NCBI GenBank assembly: GCA_023213235.1 | Contig: CP096137.1 | Coordinates: 71,587 to 135,586 of the forward strand | Direction: 5' to 3' | Length of the DNA stretch: 64,000 bases | Origin: Elusimicrobiota bacterium | GTDB taxonomy: Bacteria; Elusimicrobiota; Elusimicrobia; UBA1565; UBA9628 | In this document: one piece after another, positions 12,057 through 21,439 of the stretch | Layout of the letters: each line of letters opens with the position of its first letter | Numbering within the stretch: position 1 is the stretch's first letter | The notes under the pieces: generated by a model | What the model saw: only the letters and a program-made list of their open reading frames with translations | What the model was told of the DNA's origin: nothing | Database searches by the model: none | Translations under genes and position numbers: made by a program

Positions 12057-13507
12057 ATGGACTCCACGAAACTCTCCGCCGCACAGATCGCCGCCGCCGT
12101 CGCCAAGGGCGAGCTCTCCGCCGAGGCGGTCGCGCTCGCGCACTTCTCCCGGATCGAGAAGCTCGACGGTACCGTCAAAGCCTTCCTGACCGTCACGAAG
12201 GACTCCGCGCTCGCGCAGGCCAGGACCGTCGACGACAAACGGAAGAAGGGGAGACGCTCGGGCCGTTGGCAGGCGTCCCCGTCGCGCTCAAGGACAACAT
12301 CCAGGTCAAAGGCGTCGAGACGACCTGCGCGTCCAAGATTCTGAAGGGGCAGATCGCGGCCTATGACGCGACGGTCACGGAGCGCCTCAAAGGCGCCGAC
12401 GCGATCCTCATGGGCAAATGCAACCTGGATGAGTTCGCGATGGGCTCCTCCACGGAGAACTCCGCCTTCCAGAAGACCACGAACCCGTGGGACGCGGCCT
12501 GCGTGCCCGGCGGCTCCTCCGGCGGCTCCGCGGCGGCCGCCGCGGCGCGCTTCTGCTCGTTCAGTCTCGGCTCCGACACCGGCGGCTCGATCCGCCAGCC
12601 CGCGGCGTTCTGCGGCACGGTGGGCCTCAAGCCGACCTATGGCCTCGTCTCGCGCTTCGGCCTGGTCGCCTTCGCCTCCTCGCTCGACCAGATCGGCCCG
12701 TTCACGCGCACCGTCGAGGACGCCGAGCTCGCGCTGTCGGTGATCGGCGGGCACGACCCCAAGGACACGACGTCGGCGACCAACGAGCCCGCTCCGGTGT
12801 CCCAGACCCCGAAGGATCTCAAAGGCCTGCGCATCGGGCTTCCGCGCGAGTACTTCATCGACGGCCTCGACCCCGAGGTCGAAAAGGCCGTGCGCGCGGC
12901 CGTCGACGTCCTGAAGTCCATGGGCGCCGAGATCAAGGAGATCAGCCTCCCGCACACGAAGTACGCGATCGCGACGTACTACATCATCGCTCCGTCCGAG
13001 GCCTCCTCGAACCTCGCGCGCTTCGACGGCATCCGTTACGGATACTCCGACAAGGGCGCGACGAACCTCCAGGAGGTCTACGAACTGACCCGCGGCGCCG
13101 GCTTCGGCCCCGAGGTCAAGCGCCGCATCATGCTCGGCACTTACGCGTTGTCCTCCGGCTACTACGACGCGTACTACTCGAAGGCTCAGCGCGTGCGCAC
13201 GCTCATGGCCGACGACTTCAAGAACGCGTTCAAAGAGGTCGACCTCATCGCGGCGCCGACCACGCCGACGCCGCCGTTCCGCTTCGGCGAGAAGACGAAC
13301 GATCCGATCGCGATGTACCTGTCCGACATCTTCACGATCCCGTCGAACATGGCCGGCAACGCCTCGGTTTCCATCCCCTGCGGCACGAGCGCCAAGGGCA
13401 TGCCGCTGGGCCTGCAGCTGATCGCCGACGTGTTCCAGGAGAAGCGCATGCTCTCCGTCGCCAAGGCGTATGAGGCGGCCAAGCCGTTCGCTTTGCTGGA
13501 GAAATGA
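12057..13507 (+). CDS. gatA: Glu-tRNA(Gln) amidotransferase subunit A, with a frame break at the G4 run 12248-12251.
   Basis: ORF 12057..12344 and ORF 12266..13507 join when one G is added: ..[24 protein letters not shown]... Amidase signature: [29 protein letters not shown]. Confidence 0.9.
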
Positions 13508-13911
13508 GAGAGGCGAAGGAATACGCCGCCGGCGGGATCGTCGAGAAGAACGGGAAAGTCCTGCTCGTGCAGGTGACGAACCTCGAGGGGAAGGTCGTGT
13601 GGTCCTTCCCGAAGGGGCATCTCGAGAAGAAAGAGACTCCGCTGAAAGCGGCGCTGCGCGAAGTCGAGGAAGAGACGGGCTGGAAGTGCCGCAGCATAGG
13701 GCCTTTGGCGTTGATCCGTTATCGGTTCAACAGAAACGGCAGGCCCGTCGCGAAGAAAGTACGCTGGTACCGGATGGAGCCGATCGAGAAGACCGGGAAA
13801 CCCGACGCGGTCGAGATCATGAAGACCAAATGGGTCGCGCGGAGCATGGCCGATCGATCATTGACGTATCCAAGCGACCTTCGCCTGTTCCGCCGTTATA
13901 TAGGGAAGTGA
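13504..13911 (+). CDS. NUDIX hydrolase.
   Basis: Nudix box [26 protein letters not shown] overlap with the gatA stop. GC is visibly lower than in the flanks. Confidence 0.85.
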
Positions 13912-18300: not shown

Positions 18301-18899
18301 TCATCGACGCGGTGTCGAAGGCGGCCTACGCCTACAAGGCCGAGGCCGACAAGGGCCGCGTGAAGTCCTACAGCCTGCACAAGGCCTGGGGCACCTACGA
18401 GCCCGTCACGATGCCGCCGACCGACTTCTCGCCGAAGTTCCCGGAGACGACGGGCCTCGAGCGCCGCTACGACGACCAGGTCAACGTGCTCGCCAAGGAC
18501 CGCTACAACTTCCTCAAGAAGCAGTATGAGTCCGACATCCGCCGCAACGGCAAGGATATCGAGGCTCAGCTGCAGCTCGGCATCATCGAGTACCAGTTCG
18601 GCAACCGCGAGGCGGCCGTCACCGAGTTCAACAAGGTGCTGTCCCTCGACCCGTCGAACTCGTCGGCGCTCAACAACCTCGGCTCGGTCGCCTTCCTCGA
18701 GGGCGACAACGTCGAGGCCGAGAAGCGCTTCACGCAGGCCTCCGAGGCCGAGCCCGAGGACCCGATGATCTGGCTGAACCTCGTGAAGACGTCGCTGCGC
18801 CTCAAGAAGGCCGACAAGGCGAAGGCGATGGGCGAGAAGGCCGTCGCGCTCGCCCCGTCGTTCAAGCCGGCCGTCGACAGCCTGATCAAGGGAAGCTGA
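15396..18899 (+). CDS. Large exported multidomain protein: about 12 NHL repeats, an FN3-like module, a transglutaminase-like Cys-His core, and C-terminal TPR repeats.
   Basis: ORF 15396..18899 (1167 aa) is intact. Signal peptide is [19 protein letters not shown]. The NHL signature recurs (P.GVAV...G.IYVADTGN.RIQ.F). The transglutaminase-like segment is SGQCSDLTSLYAAMLED..YPGHMTLMFD..WVPVEVT. The TPR tail is ..QLGIIEYQFGNREAAVTEFNKVLSLDPSNS... Confidence 0.8.
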   Translation: MNRLVPLALAVLLAVPAGAYDTIRFLEPIKGDEMAKPVAAAAASDRLYVVDEKKNMLFLYDMGGKLIKSTGRSGAQTGAFNSPRGVAVGPKGNVYVADTGNHRVQIFDRDGNFVYSFGEKGSEPGKLKSPESVSIGADGRIYVADTGNNRIQVFTNEGILLFLFSRYGKEPGLLTNPTRVAVDPSDNVFVLDKGNERIQKFDSSAKFVKEFALLGNDFTVDQYGFLYVLDGRNGKVIEQSGDGFIMGRFGSLGSGVGQMKKAEGLAVTPEGLIVVLDTGNGRIHRVELANKLKIRTLPLNLQTKMSVSGPSRAWPYSASVLAPFGDDLYAYLPKEAQFVIIDDKGKEKSRFGASKGKGGDVTRGVGGMAVAKTPKVDGLYVTDNPNHRLQQFETDGKWKSNVGEAQGFFDSKKREGRMKNPNGVAINGEGVVYVADTGNQRIDAFSPEGVFLFGFGPKVGNYMLLEPVAVAWDKAGFIYFVDKGLKRVFKCEPSGAYIASWGEDGDGPGEFKSPVSIAFDGQNYLYTLDSILRRVSVHTKDGKWLADFFAGGKQERELLDPVAVSVQGDKLVIADKGKARLVSYDLHPMLTAPASVSTTTKDGIVAISWEPVADPWTGGYVVTRATSPAGPWATAGETKTETFQDSEVTPYEKYWYRVATKAKTSDVGPAGRSIDVFVSGSFNRSPVEISTVTLGDIFAANYKWYLRNPMGVATLTNNVNAPFENVKLTFKLKDYMDFGFDTEIKKLAAKQSVDVPLIATLNNKVLEISEDTPIQAEFTMTYFESGKQQTVSITKPLRLYSKNAITWQDPRRIANFVTRKDPPVRDFVRSVSTLEFKNRKASALNTPALKAMRLWNALSEYGLKFVANPANPFEAAHDDPNFPVDYTQFPRETLRSKSGQCSDLTSLYAAMLEDSEVRVAILDYPGHMTLMFDTEAEDAAEAGMPADLLVEHDGTMWVPVEVTYIGKPFIDAVSKAAYAYKAEADKGRVKSYSLHKAWGTYEPVTMPPTDFSPKFPETTGLERRYDDQVNVLAKDRYNFLKKQYESDIRRNGKDIEAQLQLGIIEYQFGNREAAVTEFNKVLSLDPSNSSALNNLGSVAFLEGDNVEAEKRFTQASEAEPEDPMIWLNLVKTSLRLKKADKAKAMGEKAVALAPSFKPAVDSLIKGS

Positions 18900-18921
18900 T
18901 TTCCGTCGGAGGAGAAACATC

Positions 18922-19383
18922 ATGAAAACGCTGATCATCGCCGTGATCCTCGCCGCCTTGGCCGTGACGTCGCACGCCCAGGCGCAGGAGGCCAAGAAGA
19001 CCGGCTGGGGCGACTTCTTCAAGAATCTGAAGAACTCGCTGTCGCAGTCCGCCGTCAGCAGCGAGCGCAAGCGCGGCCGCAACGCGCAGGGCGTGGCCGC
19101 CGTCCGCGGCGACGACCAGTCCAAGAAGAACTTCGCCGATCCCAACGAGCCCGGGCTCAAGGGCGACGCCAAGAGCGCGAAGGTCCGCCGCGAGATGGCC
19201 TACGACCAGGAGCTCGAGGCCGCCATCGACCTCGTGAACAAGGGCAAGCTCGACGAGAGCCTCAAGGCGCTCGAGAACTTCAAGACGGCCCACCCGAAGC
19301 ACAAGACCGCCGACGTCGACAAGGCGATCGAGGGCGTCAAGGCGATGCAGGCCGAGAAGGCCGCCGCGCCCGCCGCTCAGTAA
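18922..19383 (+). CDS. Small secreted hypothetical protein (153 aa).
   Basis: ORF 18922..19383. A GGAGGAG Shine-Dalgarno lies 8 nt upstream. Signal peptide is MKTLIIAVILAALAVTSHAQA. No family recognised. Confidence 0.55.
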   Translation: MKTLIIAVILAALAVTSHAQAQEAKKTGWGDFFKNLKNSLSQSAVSSERKRGRNAQGVAAVRGDDQSKKNFADPNEPGLKGDAKSAKVRREMAYDQELEAAIDLVNKGKLDESLKALENFKTAHPKHKTADVDKAIEGVKAMQAEKAAAPAAQ

Positions 19384-19403
19384 GCCGCCGCTCCGCCGGA
19401 CAA

Positions 19404-19438
19404 CGGGCCCCCGCCGCGAGGCGGGGCCCGCTATTTTC
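19404..19438 (+). terminator. Rho-independent terminator.
   Basis: CGGGCCCCCGCC-GCGA-GGCGGGGCCCG gives 11 bp with one bulged C and a GNRA loop, followed by CTATTTTC. It lies 21 nt after the stop at 19383. Confidence 0.65.
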
Positions 19439-19481
19439 GCCGTATCCGGCGAGCGGCTCGACTTAAACACAGGCGCTCCGC

Positions 19482-19509
19482 TCTCAACTGTTGTCGACAA
19501 CAGTTGAGA
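19482..19509. repeat. 28-bp perfect palindrome with no loop.
   Basis: TCTCAACTGTTGTCGACAACAGTTGAGA. It is made of two sub-palindromes, CAACTGTTG and CAACAGTTG, around a central TCGA. Confidence 0.9.
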
Positions 19510-19543
19510 AGGACTTCCCGGTGAATAACACGGAGGCGTGGGG

Positions 19544-19572
19544 TTGACCTCGCTTCAGTTCGAGGCTACACT
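19544..19572 (+). promoter_or_regulatory. Sigma-70-type promoter of the islet operon, with leaderless geometry.
   Basis: TTGACC (19544-19549), 17-nt spacer, TACACT (19567-19572), 6 nt, ATG at 19579. Confidence 0.55.
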
Positions 19573-19578
19573 GTCGAA

Positions 19579-20163
19579 ATGCGACCATCAGTCGTATTGA
19601 CCCTGTTATTCGTCACTTCAGCTTCGGCTGCCGACGTAAAGCCGAACCTTTTGCGCGTCGGGTCGGACGTATATACTCTGAGTAGCGCGAGCAAAGGCCA
19701 GGGTCCCGTGACCGTGTCGAAGCAAGACGCCAGGGATAAGGCGCGCGTCTTCAAGAATTATCGCCTCGGCGTCGCCGCCGACGGGACGATCTCGGAGCTC
19801 GCGAATTGCGCGGAAACGGCGCTCGGTCCGAACTGCGTGGAGATCGAGACAGGCGGCGGCAAGTACATGCTTCCTTCCCTTGAATCCCTCTTCATCGGGG
19901 ATGAAAAGCCCTGGATCGCCGTCATGATCAGAGGCAAGCGCACGAAGATTCCGCTTCCGATGGACGCCGGAAGAATCCGATCCGTTGCGGCGACCTCGGG
20001 CGGAATACGCCTCGTCGTTTTTGCGCAGAAATCGCTCGGCCGCCGCAGCGAGGGCGGACGTGAGATGTTCGGGGTGGCGCACGGCGGCGTCTATAAGATC
20101 GTTGAAATAGCTGCCGACGCGGTCAAATCGGAATCGATCGCCAAGACGGAGCCGCGGCCATGA
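19579..20163 (+). CDS. Secreted hypothetical protein (194 aa).
   Basis: ORF 19579..20163. Signal peptide is MRPSVVLTLLFVTSASAAD. No recognisable family. It lies in the lower-GC islet. Confidence 0.55.
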   Translation: MRPSVVLTLLFVTSASAADVKPNLLRVGSDVYTLSSASKGQGPVTVSKQDARDKARVFKNYRLGVAADGTISELANCAETALGPNCVEIETGGGKYMLPSLESLFIGDEKPWIAVMIRGKRTKIPLPMDAGRIRSVAATSGGIRLVVFAQKSLGRRSEGGREMFGVAHGGVYKIVEIAADAVKSESIAKTEPRP

Positions 20164-20366
20164 AGCCGCACGGAAGAATTCTCATCCTAACCGCCCTGAC
20201 GGCGGCGACGATCTCAGCACTCAGTGTTAAGGCCGGCGAAACGAAAGAGGACTGCGCGAATTGCCAATACCGGCCGGGCGATCCTCCCTGCGCGTGTCTC
20301 GGCAGGATAGATCCAAACGGCTGTTGGTATTATCGCTGCGACTGCTGCATCGCGCGGAAGCCTTAG
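20160..20366 (+). CDS. Secreted cysteine-rich micro-protein (68 aa, with 8 Cys in a mature part of about 43 aa).
   Basis: ORF 20160..20366. ATGA overlap with the upstream ORF. MKPHGRILILTALTAATISALSVKA | GETKEDCANCQYRPGDPPCACLGRIDPNGCWYYRCDCCIARKP. Confidence 0.5.
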   Translation: MKPHGRILILTALTAATISALSVKAGETKEDCANCQYRPGDPPCACLGRIDPNGCWYYRCDCCIARKP

Positions 20367-20367
20367 G

Positions 20368-20841
20368 CTAGCGCTTGCCCTGTAGACGCTTGATCAGGCC
20401 CGTCGTCGAGTAGCCCTGCTTCAGCGAGACGATCACGACCTTGCCCGCGTATTTCGCTTCGGGAAGGTCTTTGGGCTTGTAGTCGCCGCCCTTCACCTGG
20501 ACGTCGGGACGCAGGCGCGACATGAGCTTCTCGGGCGTCTGCTCGCCGAAGGCGACGACGGCGTCGACGCAGGAGAGCGCGGCCAGGACCTCGGCGCGGT
20601 CGCGCCACTTGTTGATGGGCCGGCCCGGCGCCTTCTCCAATAAACGGACCGAAGAGTCGGTGTTGACGCCCACGACGAGCAGGTCGCCCTGGGCTCGCGC
20701 CTTCTCGAGCACCTTCACGTGCCCGGCGTGCAGGATGTCGAAGACGCCGTTGGTGAACACGACCGCGCGGCCCTCGAAGCGCCACAGCTCCCGCAGCGTC
20801 AAGAGCTTCTTGAGCGGGACGATCTTCGAGGAGGAGTTCAT
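20368..20841 (-). CDS. hldC: D-glycero-beta-D-manno-heptose-1-phosphate adenylyltransferase (RfaE domain II type).
   Basis: ATG at 20841 within ORF 20368..20973. MNSSSKIVPL..VVFTNGVFDILHAGHVKVLEKAR..VGVNTDSSV..VKGGDYKPKDLPE..STTGLIKRL. Confidence 0.85.
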   Translation of the reverse strand: MNSSSKIVPLKKLLTLRELWRFEGRAVVFTNGVFDILHAGHVKVLEKARAQGDLLVVGVNTDSSVRLLEKAPGRPINKWRDRAEVLAALSCVDAVVAFGEQTPEKLMSRLRPDVQVKGGDYKPKDLPEAKYAGKVVIVSLKQGYSTTGLIKRLQGKR

Positions 20842-21439
20842 CAGCCGTGGGCGAGCGGCGCGTTCGGGAACAGAGCGTCCTCGAGGATGCCGCACCAGAT
20901 CTGGATCACCGTGATGTGGGCCTCCTGGATGCGGGCGGTGGAATCGGAGGGAATGCAGACGCAGTGGTCGCACAGCGCCTTGAGCTTGCCGCCGGAGCGG
21001 CCCGTCAGGCCGATGACGGTCATGCCGAGCTCGCGCGCGGCCATGGCGGCGTTGAGCACGTTCTTCGAGTTCCCGGAGGTCGAAATCGCGACTGCCACGT
21101 CGCCGGCGCGGCCGAGCGCGCGCAGCGGGCGCTCGAAAACGAACTCGAAGCCGAAGTCGTTGGCGATCGAGGTCAGGTCGCCCTGGTTGGCCGCGAGCGA
21201 GATCGCCGGCAGGCCCGGGCGGTTGCGCCGGTAGCGGCCGGTGAGCTCGTCGGCGAAGTTCGAGGCGTCGCAGGAGGAGCCGCCGTTGCCGAAGGAGAGC
21301 AGCTTGCCGCCGTTGCGGTAGGAGCGCAGGAGGTCGGCCGCCGCCGCGTCGATGACGGGGAGAGCTTGGCCGTCGCGTTGAGGACCTTCGCCGATTCCCT
21401 CAGCTGATCTTGGATCGTCTTCTTGAAGTTGTCAGGCAT
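20841..21439 (-). CDS. gmhA: Phosphoheptose isomerase (SIS domain), with a frame break at the run 21357-21360.
   Basis: ORF 21173..21439 ([20 protein letters not shown]..) joins ORF 20841..21098 (..VAISTSGNSKNVLNAAMAARELGMTVIGLTG..). Adding one base restores ..SPVIDAAAADLLRSYRNGGKLLSFGNGGSSCDASNFADEL... Confidence 0.85.

Follow-up and report, generated by a model that had tools for sequence, protein, structure and literature searches.

Within a 64,000-nucleotide stretch of an Elusimicrobiota genome (contig CP096137.1, positions 71,587 to 135,586; hereafter the window), a 927-bp islet of low guanine plus cytosine (GC) content (19440-20366) lies between two convergent genes, one encoding a 153-residue secreted protein (P153) and the other an hldC-like heptose-1-phosphate adenylyltransferase, and holds two small open reading frames (ORFs), orfA and orfB, as its only gene content. 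The islet raises the question of whether these genes, for which a sequence-only reading had proposed horizontal acquisition as a self-contained two-gene module, are foreign to the locus and, if so, what their products A and B might do. Comparison with related loci and with other copies of the pair indicates that the islet contains a cassette that was very probably acquired horizontally and that A and B probably function together as an extracytoplasmic pair. The more specific assignment of an effector role to B and a carrier or immunity role to A is tentative and rather doubtful. The model of cassette and pair, taken as a whole, is given a probability of roughly 55%.

Thirty eight related Elusimicrobiota loci (L001 to L038) were fetched with the conserved 1167-residue NHL/TPR protein encoded upstream (58-91% identity), and twenty six of these hold both P153 and hldC. 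No relative of orfA or orfB was identified in any of the thirty eight (TBLASTN, E ≤ 1e-3), and the cysteine motif of orfB was likewise not found in them. The stop-to-stop distance between P153 and hldC varies from 7 to 5858 bp among the twenty six loci. In nine of them the junction is empty (a gap of 7-105 bp, usually with a bidirectional terminator hairpin alone), the two genes being directly adjacent with no islet. As these empty junctions occur in close relatives (86-88% identity of the NHL protein) as well as in distant ones (61-72%), the empty state is likely to be ancestral.

The other seventeen junctions are filled with at least ten mutually unrelated contents, among them response regulators, a receiver-domain protein, sets of small secreted proteins, a 728-residue secreted protein, a PEBP-like protein, sulfatase-like genes and a fatty-acid hydroxylase. 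The content of the junction in the window is unique in comparison to all of these, so that at least eleven different contents are present across twenty seven genomes. Such a number of unrelated contents, together with the empty junctions, identifies the P153/hldC junction as an insertion hot spot. Examples of the junction can be seen at 14001-15725 in L001, 9791-12069 in L006, 14004-19861 in L013 and 1567-2379 in L038. In some relatives, the sets of small secreted proteins are encoded by coupled genes, and the stop codon of the fatty-acid hydroxylase gene overlaps that of hldC; synteny breaks after P153 in L011 and L019. No integrase was seen at the junctions of these relatives. The coupled secreted proteins that occupy the same site in L001 were considered as possible kin of orfA and rejected (hhalign probability below 1%).

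The composition of the islet sets it apart from its surroundings. Its GC content was calculated as 59.7% (60.0% over 19561-20340, for which a count by hand had given about 61%), compared to 69.0% for the whole window and 65.6-66.7% for the immediate neighbour genes. Windows of 927 bp with a GC content this low make up 0.14% of the total, the sole other low spot being near 13.0-13.9 kb. The GC content at third codon positions (GC3) is 0.72 for orfA and 0.68 for orfB, with values of 0.97, 0.93 and 0.98 for neighbouring genes. An index similar to the codon adaptation index, trained on forty two genes of the window, was 0.415 for orfA (z = -3.0) and 0.379 for orfB (z = -3.4), while the lowest reference gene scored 0.491. 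Both genes are strong outliers in GC3 and in codon index, and the claim of a GC content clearly below that of the surroundings, with atypical composition, was borne out. The genes are neither conserved at this locus across the clade nor typical in codon usage. Their absence from all thirty eight loci, the empty junctions and the atypical codons support the proposal of a horizontally acquired, self-contained two-gene module, and the islet would be a strain- or species-specific acquisition.

Of the features by which genomic islands are classically recognized, atypical composition and absence from the conserved locus of relatives are both present. No integrase or transposase gene, tRNA or att target or direct repeat was found at the islet: the search for direct repeats covered its borders, that for an integrase covered the islet and adjacent genes, no tRNA gene occurs in the window and no known RNA family was found at the junction. 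The islet resembles genomic islets and integron cassettes in its one or two genes of atypical composition, in its recurrently used junction with varied cargo and in an adjoining palindrome. It differs from integron cassettes in that integrase, attC/attI sites, tRNA target and direct repeats are missing and in that it has its own promoter, which integron cassettes usually do not. The palindrome, moreover, occurs once rather than on both sides, being upstream with none 3’ of orfB, and no integrase is adjacent, which sets the islet outside the integron cassettes.

The arrangement previously described for the islet was recovered at the sequence level (Table 1). It lies between the terminator downstream of P153 and hldC, with 1 nt between the convergent stop codons of orfB and hldC; a near-consensus promoter precedes orfA, the two ORFs are translationally coupled by an ATGA stop/start overlap at 20160-20163, and a 28-bp perfect palindrome is present. 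One part of the description did not hold, namely that the palindrome belongs to the imported module. The 28-bp palindrome, which occurs once in the window and in none of 100 shuffles, was found to be the core of an imperfect palindrome of 66 bp consisting of TTAAACACA (19463-19471), 10 nt, the core, a further 10 nt and GGTGAATAA (19520-19528). Related cores (ACTGTTGTCGACAACAGT, up to 3 mismatches) were identified in the P153/hldC gap of L001, L002 (two copies, without cargo) and L033, with none elsewhere in those loci and none in the other contigs carrying the cassette. The arms of the palindrome co-vary with complementarity kept: eight of thirteen pairs are changed on both sides, and 86% of cells are paired, a level reached by none of 500 shuffles. 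In the window, L001 and L010 the element has cargo on its right side, in L033 the cargo is on the left side, and L002 and L036 carry none. As relatives possess related palindromes in the same junction with other cargo or with none, the palindrome is host junction DNA, contradicting its attribution to the import. On this basis, the foreign DNA most likely starts between 19529 and 19543 and not at 19440, and the foreign cassette is about 0.85 kb in size, ending at 20366.

The other edges were defined by comparison with the same relatives. A GC-rich hairpin with a T-run homologous to the terminator at 19404-19438 is located 3’ of the P153 orthologue in relatives, those with empty junctions included, and this terminator is host backbone that lies outside the cassette. 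The hldC gene, with orthologues of 70-89% identity in relatives, is likewise part of the host backbone and delimits the insertion on the right. A terminator is lacking in the cassette itself, and the cassette transcript would run antisense into hldC. Relatives with an empty junction have a bidirectional terminator common to P153 and hldC; in the window hldC has lost it, as this terminator now lies about 0.93 kb away.

With respect to the function of the palindrome, the inverted 9-mers that flank the core match the DnaA box perfectly in L001 and L010 (TTATCCACA / TGTGGATAA), whereas those of the window are degenerate, and the core fits a CTGT-N8-ACAG shape and an 11-6-11 layout. Possible roles include a hairpin or cruciform that aids illegitimate insertion, or a site of the DnaA or LexA type (CTGT-N8-ACAG). 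A repetitive extragenic palindrome or a miniature inverted-repeat transposable element was rejected, with no further copies present in the 64 kb of the window or in the thirty eight loci (up to 23 kb each).

Evidence that orfA and orfB form a unit comes from five other contigs (L039, L040, L041, L042 and L044), in each of which an orfB homologue is situated directly 3’ of an orfA homologue on the same strand. This bears out the co-occurrence that had been put forward as a check on the pair. The organisms of these five contigs have GC contents of 37-63%. Including the window, six cassettes were found. The contig L044, a Joint Genome Institute (JGI) metagenome contig with the pair on its minus strand, was found with a DNA pattern for GCW[YF]xxCxCC[VI]A; a second metagenome match to this pattern (L045) was discarded as a spurious run of cysteines, and a motif scan of viral sequences gave nothing. 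Comparison of orfB with the five homologue loci (TBLASTN) gave E values from 2e-24 to 4e-8. The two proteins vary together, with a short A (about 193 residues, with a cysteine pair) being paired with a short B (59-68 residues, 8 cysteines) and a long A (215-233 residues) with a long B (101-114 residues, 9-12 cysteines, with a spacer of 40-50 residues). The orfA homologues of L042 and L044 have a GC content below that of the remainder of their contigs. The cassette is very rare, accessory and previously undescribed.

The promoter also appears to travel with the pair. TTGACC-17-TACACT is the sole sigma-70-like match in 18800-20900 (0.2 expected), and its -10 element ends 6 nt 5’ of the orfA start codon, with no Shine-Dalgarno sequence in those 6 nt. 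In L042, a promoter TTGACT-17-TATACT at 753-781 is likewise followed by 6 nt and an ATG at 788 without a Shine-Dalgarno sequence, and this identical geometry assigns the promoter to the cassette. The same geometry implies that orfA would be translated from a leaderless mRNA. The cassette is comparable to known leaderless bacterial mRNAs in having the -10 hexamer 6 nt before the ATG and no Shine-Dalgarno sequence, an arrangement kept in two cassettes. It differs in that the cassettes of L040 and L041 have ordinary leaders, and the start site here is deduced from sequence.

Translation of orfB is served by a Shine-Dalgarno sequence within the final codons of orfA. Its contexts are alike in the window (acGGAGccgcggccATGA), L042 (AAGGAGccgaagccATGA) and L039 (GAGGAGccccgtccTTGA), and in all three, which are the closest cassettes, the GGAG 8 nt 5’ of the B start falls within the codons for the conserved C-terminus of A (E-P-[RK]-P). 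The A stop and the B start share a 4-nt overlap in four cassettes, those of the window, L039 (TTGA), L041 and L042, and are separated by 1 nt in L044 and by 6 nt in L040. The neighbours of the islet in the window are P153, the NHL-TPR protein, hldC and gmhA, and the flanking genes differ in every homologue contig (GreA-like, SIS-domain and others). A gmhA-type context shared by L040 and the window was considered and rejected, the SIS-domain gene of L040 being unrelated to the gmhA of the window. Since the cassette is set in a conserved backbone in the window, no maturase, exporter or regulator accompanies it. Taken together, the cassette is a conserved unit consisting of its own promoter, orfA, and orfB coupled by the internal Shine-Dalgarno sequence and the ATGA overlap. 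Co-inheritance and translational coupling suggest that A and B act together, in a role that these two features leave unspecified, so that the pairings put forward from sequence alone, an effector with a partner or a peptide with a carrier or immunity protein, are conjectural.

The product of orfA is annotated in a public Elusimicrobiota metagenome-assembled genome (a 3.8-Mb contig, locus tag M0D55_00510). When 1.84 billion representative proteins were searched exhaustively with phmmer, the matches included a protein of 193 residues aligned over its full length (P0002, E = 1e-28, 34% identity), a fragment (P0003, E = 6e-21, 54% identity with phmmer and 51% with BLASTP) and proteins of 231 (P0004, E = 4e-8), 215 (P0005, E = 7.5e-5) and 221 residues (P0006, E = 1.2e-4); a cadherin-like repeat protein among the matches was regarded as spurious. 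In all, orfA has six distant relatives, making a family of seven members with the protein of the window. Four members of the family, that of the window included, were found again in a collection of 5.8 billion proteins, each as one sequence on one contig, while a word-indexed protein search matched orfA only to itself. A metagenome scan with a three-sequence alignment of orfA gave no confirmed matches.

No family could be assigned to either protein, in agreement with the claim that neither was recognizable. Neither gene product gave a Pfam or NCBIfam match at E ≤ 1, neither the two proteins nor their families gave a match in Pfam, NCBIfam, PHROGs or PADLOC or, by sequence-profile search, in PDB, and neither protein was matched in phage and plasmid collections (TBLASTN). 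No similarity to a housekeeping family was thus identified for either. A match of one family member to CopK (E = 1.3) was treated as noise. Sec-type signal peptides had also been claimed for both proteins, and the corresponding features were found in both and in their homologues by a heuristic check (1-4 K/R, followed by 10 residues with a Kyte-Doolittle value of at least 2.4 and small residues at -3/-1). All twelve family proteins were positive for n-, h- and c-regions. A lipobox is absent from the window proteins, and no consistent twin-arginine motif was seen.

For A, the signal peptide covers about residues 1-17, leaving a mature protein of about 177 residues (18.8 kDa, isoelectric point (pI) 9.5). 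An AlphaFold2 model based on a six-sequence alignment is all-beta with 16 strands (predicted local distance difference test (pLDDT) 84.9, predicted template modelling score 0.79). A Foldseek search of PDB and BFVD with this model gave blades of beta-propellers as best matches, which are weak and partial (E ≥ 5e-3, template modelling (TM) score ≤ 0.38). In known propellers, 4-8 blades of four strands each close into a toroid. The invariant residues of A are only L, P, G, I and V. A confidently modelled all-beta fold without a structural homologue and with such invariant residues suggests that A may serve as a binder or scaffold and is less likely to be an enzyme.

For B, the signal peptide covers about residues 1-25, and the mature peptide has about 43 residues (4.8 kDa, pI 6.2) with eight cysteines. 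All eight (C32, C35, C44, C46, C55, C60, C62 and C63) are invariant in five aligned sequences, and an aromatic block GCW[YF]Y is conserved. A single-sequence AlphaFold2 model is weak overall (pLDDT 66), with a short helix at the CxxC motif and a beta-hairpin (44-50 / 56-62) around a DPNG turn, where pLDDT is 75-84; Foldseek matches of this low-confidence model were regarded as noise. In the collection of 5.8 billion proteins orfB was not found, not even as a match to itself, although orfA is present, and it appears to have been missed by public annotation. The orfB homologue of L039 has likewise not been called as a gene.

Based on these features, the following mechanism is proposed. Both products would be exported by the Sec pathway and their signal peptides cleaved, with translation of orfB coupled to that of orfA. 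The 43-residue B would fold into a disulfide-braced hairpin mini-protein by means of the general disulfide machinery of the host, and would need no dedicated maturase or exporter, since none travels with the cassette. The basic, all-beta A (about 19 kDa) would bind B, either in the periplasm or beyond the cell, at a ratio of about 1:1. In this scheme B may be an effector, most likely one antagonistic to competitors or active on the envelope, and A its carrier or a neutralizing, immunity-like partner. A disulfide-rich effector, itself a tentative assignment, is favoured over a metal or redox pair, which is unlikely, and in turn over a modified peptide, which is very unlikely.

A number of observations weigh against this mechanism. 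Mature B is near neutral, unlike the cationic or amphipathic peptides typical of antimicrobials, and its eight cysteines would suit metal or redox chemistry equally well. A Sec signal in a diderm reaches the periplasm only, and no outer-membrane route was identified here. Movement of the cassette is accounted for by neither an integrase, a tRNA gene nor flanking direct repeats. In L043 (403-1526), an A homologue occurs without B and is translationally coupled, by a 4-nt overlap, to an upstream gene for a retropepsin-like aspartic protease. In L039 B is intact, but the A copy looks disrupted at its two ends, due to either a pseudogene or an assembly error; if real, this argues against A being an essential antidote. 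The homologue contigs are 1.2-3.3 kb in length, and accessory genes may lie farther off in them. A fatty-acid desaturase gene is located 3’ of the orfA-family gene in L043.

The proposed mechanism can be compared with secreted toxin or bacteriocin systems that have periplasmic immunity proteins (Tsi-type and Sec-dependent bacteriocin operons). Shared with these are a coupled, two-gene, mobile accessory module in a variable spot, a partner exported to the compartment of the small product, and fast diversification of both partners together. The cassette differs in that neither sequence nor fold resembles known families, the gene order puts the partner first, the peptide lacks a cationic character and no route across the outer membrane was identified. 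PADLOC gave no match for the pair. Similarities in general features were also noted with the methylamine dehydrogenase MauB/MauA and quinohemoprotein amine dehydrogenase systems, periplasmic enzymes with a beta-propeller heavy subunit and a cysteine-rich light subunit, in which an exported all-beta, propeller-like protein is likewise encoded next to a small, disulfide- or crosslink-rich, tryptophan-containing exported subunit. However, A has only about 177 residues without a confident propeller match, neither mauD/E/F nor the radical-SAM qhpD is present, and there is no homology to MauA or QhpC.

The first alternative to an effector pair is one that buffers periplasmic metal or redox stress, with B being rich in thiolates (for Cu, Zn or Cd) or redox-active and A a carrier or chaperone, similar to a bufferin system but without enzymatic modification of cysteines. 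In bufferins, a BufA precursor (DUF2282 or BUF_6/12Cys) with a Sec signal is accompanied by an MNIO (DUF692) protein, BufB, and a DUF2063 protein, BufC (PMC11626156, PMC12452194). By analogy, bufferins appear to be the closest described counterpart of a Sec-exported, cysteine-rich peptide: both are small, cysteine-rich and periplasmic, with an N-terminal Sec signal (predicted here), both are encoded by small accessory operons, and the predicted mini-protein fold likewise has a two-stranded sheet and a short helix. B, cysteine-rich and with predicted Sec export as in bufferins (PMC11626156), is not cationic, and its eight invariant cysteines include a CxxC at the N-terminus of a predicted helix. 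An accessory and horizontally mobile cassette is also typical of metal-resistance determinants. Periplasmic thiols could stay reduced if the host is anaerobic, and many groundwater Elusimicrobiota are anaerobes. There are, however, differences. No MNIO, DUF2063 or DoxX protein is encoded at the cassette, and no MNIO or DUF2063 domain was found in the orfA family or among the neighbours in the window and in the homologue contigs. The eight cysteines of orfB follow another pattern, and A is itself exported (predicted) and all-beta (modelled). No match to DUF2282 or to a bufferin or metallothionein family was obtained, orfB and four aligned homologues remaining without a Pfam or NCBIfam match even at E ≤ 10, a search for which the inclusion of the BUF_6/12Cys model is unchecked. 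Conserved His or Met residues are absent, the only copper-related match was the CopK noise mentioned above, and the GCW[YF]Y block with its tight hairpin resembles the structural core of a disulfide-rich fold. A metal or redox role is regarded as unlikely on these grounds.

A second alternative is that orfB encodes the precursor of a ribosomally synthesized and post-translationally modified peptide (RiPP), the cysteines of which are modified or cross-linked either by the orfA product, which would be a novel maturase or scaffold, or by an enzyme from another locus. The adjacency of a small, cysteine-rich peptide gene to a conserved partner without an assigned fold would fit this, as would the 40-50 residues between the signal peptide and the cysteine core of the long subfamily, which could be a leader, and RiPP precursors with a Sec signal are known in the form of bufferins (PMC11626156). 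With a signal peptide of its own, however, A would meet B after export, where maturases dependent on ATP, S-adenosylmethionine or iron do not operate. A also has no invariant residues of a catalytic type and no similarity to RiPP enzymes or to an RRE domain, and neither the window nor any of the homologue contigs has a maturase among the adjacent genes. Because A is predicted to be exported and lacks such residues, and no maturase travels with the pair, this possibility is strongly disfavoured.

Thirdly, it may be that no transfer took place and that the genes evolve rapidly, are orphans specific to this lineage and originated or decayed at this site, with a low GC content due to weak selection. 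The absence of mobility genes, a tRNA gene and flanking repeats would agree with this, and the relatives compared include no genome of the same species. Against it, the same promoter and coupling layout is seen in cassettes on contigs of 37-63% GC that have no flanking genes in common with the window, and the junction is empty in close and distant relatives. The eight cysteines and the core of A are moreover kept at 34-54% identity, which implies purifying selection, and an origin in place is considered highly improbable next to acquisition of the cassette. That orfB is an ORF formed by chance in the 3’ untranslated region of orfA, in line with its absence from the collection of 5.8 billion proteins and its length of only 68 codons in a high-GC genome where chance ORFs are common, is effectively refuted by five homologues at the same position (matched by TBLASTN as above) with eight invariant cysteines, conserved signal peptides, a Shine-Dalgarno sequence and a start/stop overlap.

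The findings add two protein families without a match in current domain libraries and one small gene missing from the protein database searched, and indicate that orfA and orfB are a conserved mobile functional pair and not isolated orphans. Sec-exported, cysteine-rich bacterial peptides are few, bufferins having been recognized only in 2024. A maturase-free family of this kind would, if true, be a useful addition and a compact scaffold for peptide engineering. The pair is a candidate determinant of antagonism or metal stress in an uncultivated phylum, and the locus offers a clean natural case of convergent genes that frame an integrase-free hot spot. As the cassette is very rare, with six copies found, its immediate impact is modest; the families are new and the architecture tidy, while small accessory operons that sit at hot spots and encode exported proteins are of a familiar kind. 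In the most far-reaching case, which is speculative and quite improbable, the pair would represent a new class of maturase-independent, Sec-exported, disulfide-knotted peptide with an all-beta partner (bacteriocin and immunity protein, or metallophore and carrier), which spreads between phyla as a self-promoted leaderless mini-operon, with the 66-bp palindrome and its DnaA-box-like ends serving as an integrase-free cruciform or hairpin capture site.

Table 1. Positions of the features of the islet and its surroundings in the window, and of the palindrome element in related loci (in the coordinates of each locus).
Feature	Position	Strand	Basis or remark
P153, upstream gene, 153-residue secreted protein	18922-19383		
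Terminator hairpin and T-run	19404-19438	+	3’ of P153; inverted repeats 19404-19415 / 19420-19430
Imperfect palindrome, 66 bp	19463-19528	.	Host junction element
Perfect palindrome core, 28 bp	19482-19509		14+14 nt, spacer 0
Sigma-70-type promoter TTGACC-17-TACACT	19544-19572	+	Motif scan
orfA, 194 residues	19579-20163	+	ORF
orfB Shine-Dalgarno GGAG	20148-20151	+	Within final orfA codons, 8 nt 5’ of orfB ATG
orfB, 68 residues	20160-20366	+	ORF, ATGA coupling
orfB cysteine-rich core CxxC-x8-CxC-x8-C-x4-CxCC	20253-20348	+	Regular expression scan
hldC-like heptose-1-phosphate adenylyltransferase	20368-20841	-	PF01467 2.3e-16; TIGR02199 6.5e-52
Palindrome element, L001	14066-14125		
Palindrome element, L002	14119-14188		
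Palindrome element, L010	4619-4656		
Palindrome element, L033	4137-4187		
Palindrome element, L036	3911-3948		

Two further observations were made on the composition of the window. The GC skew flips at 19.4 kb, and a replication origin or terminus at this position was considered and rejected, as the skew follows gene orientation throughout the window, with coding strands being rich in C whichever their direction. The minima and maxima of skew in this genome are switches of gene orientation and not marks of an origin or terminus. The second-lowest GC spot (13504-13911) was found to encode a NUDIX-box protein of 135 residues with a GC content of about 59% and a codon index of z = -2.6. This gene is situated between gatA (12266-13507), the stop codon of which overlaps its start, and gatB (from 13961), and may be another acquired gene inside the normally contiguous gatA-gatB pair.

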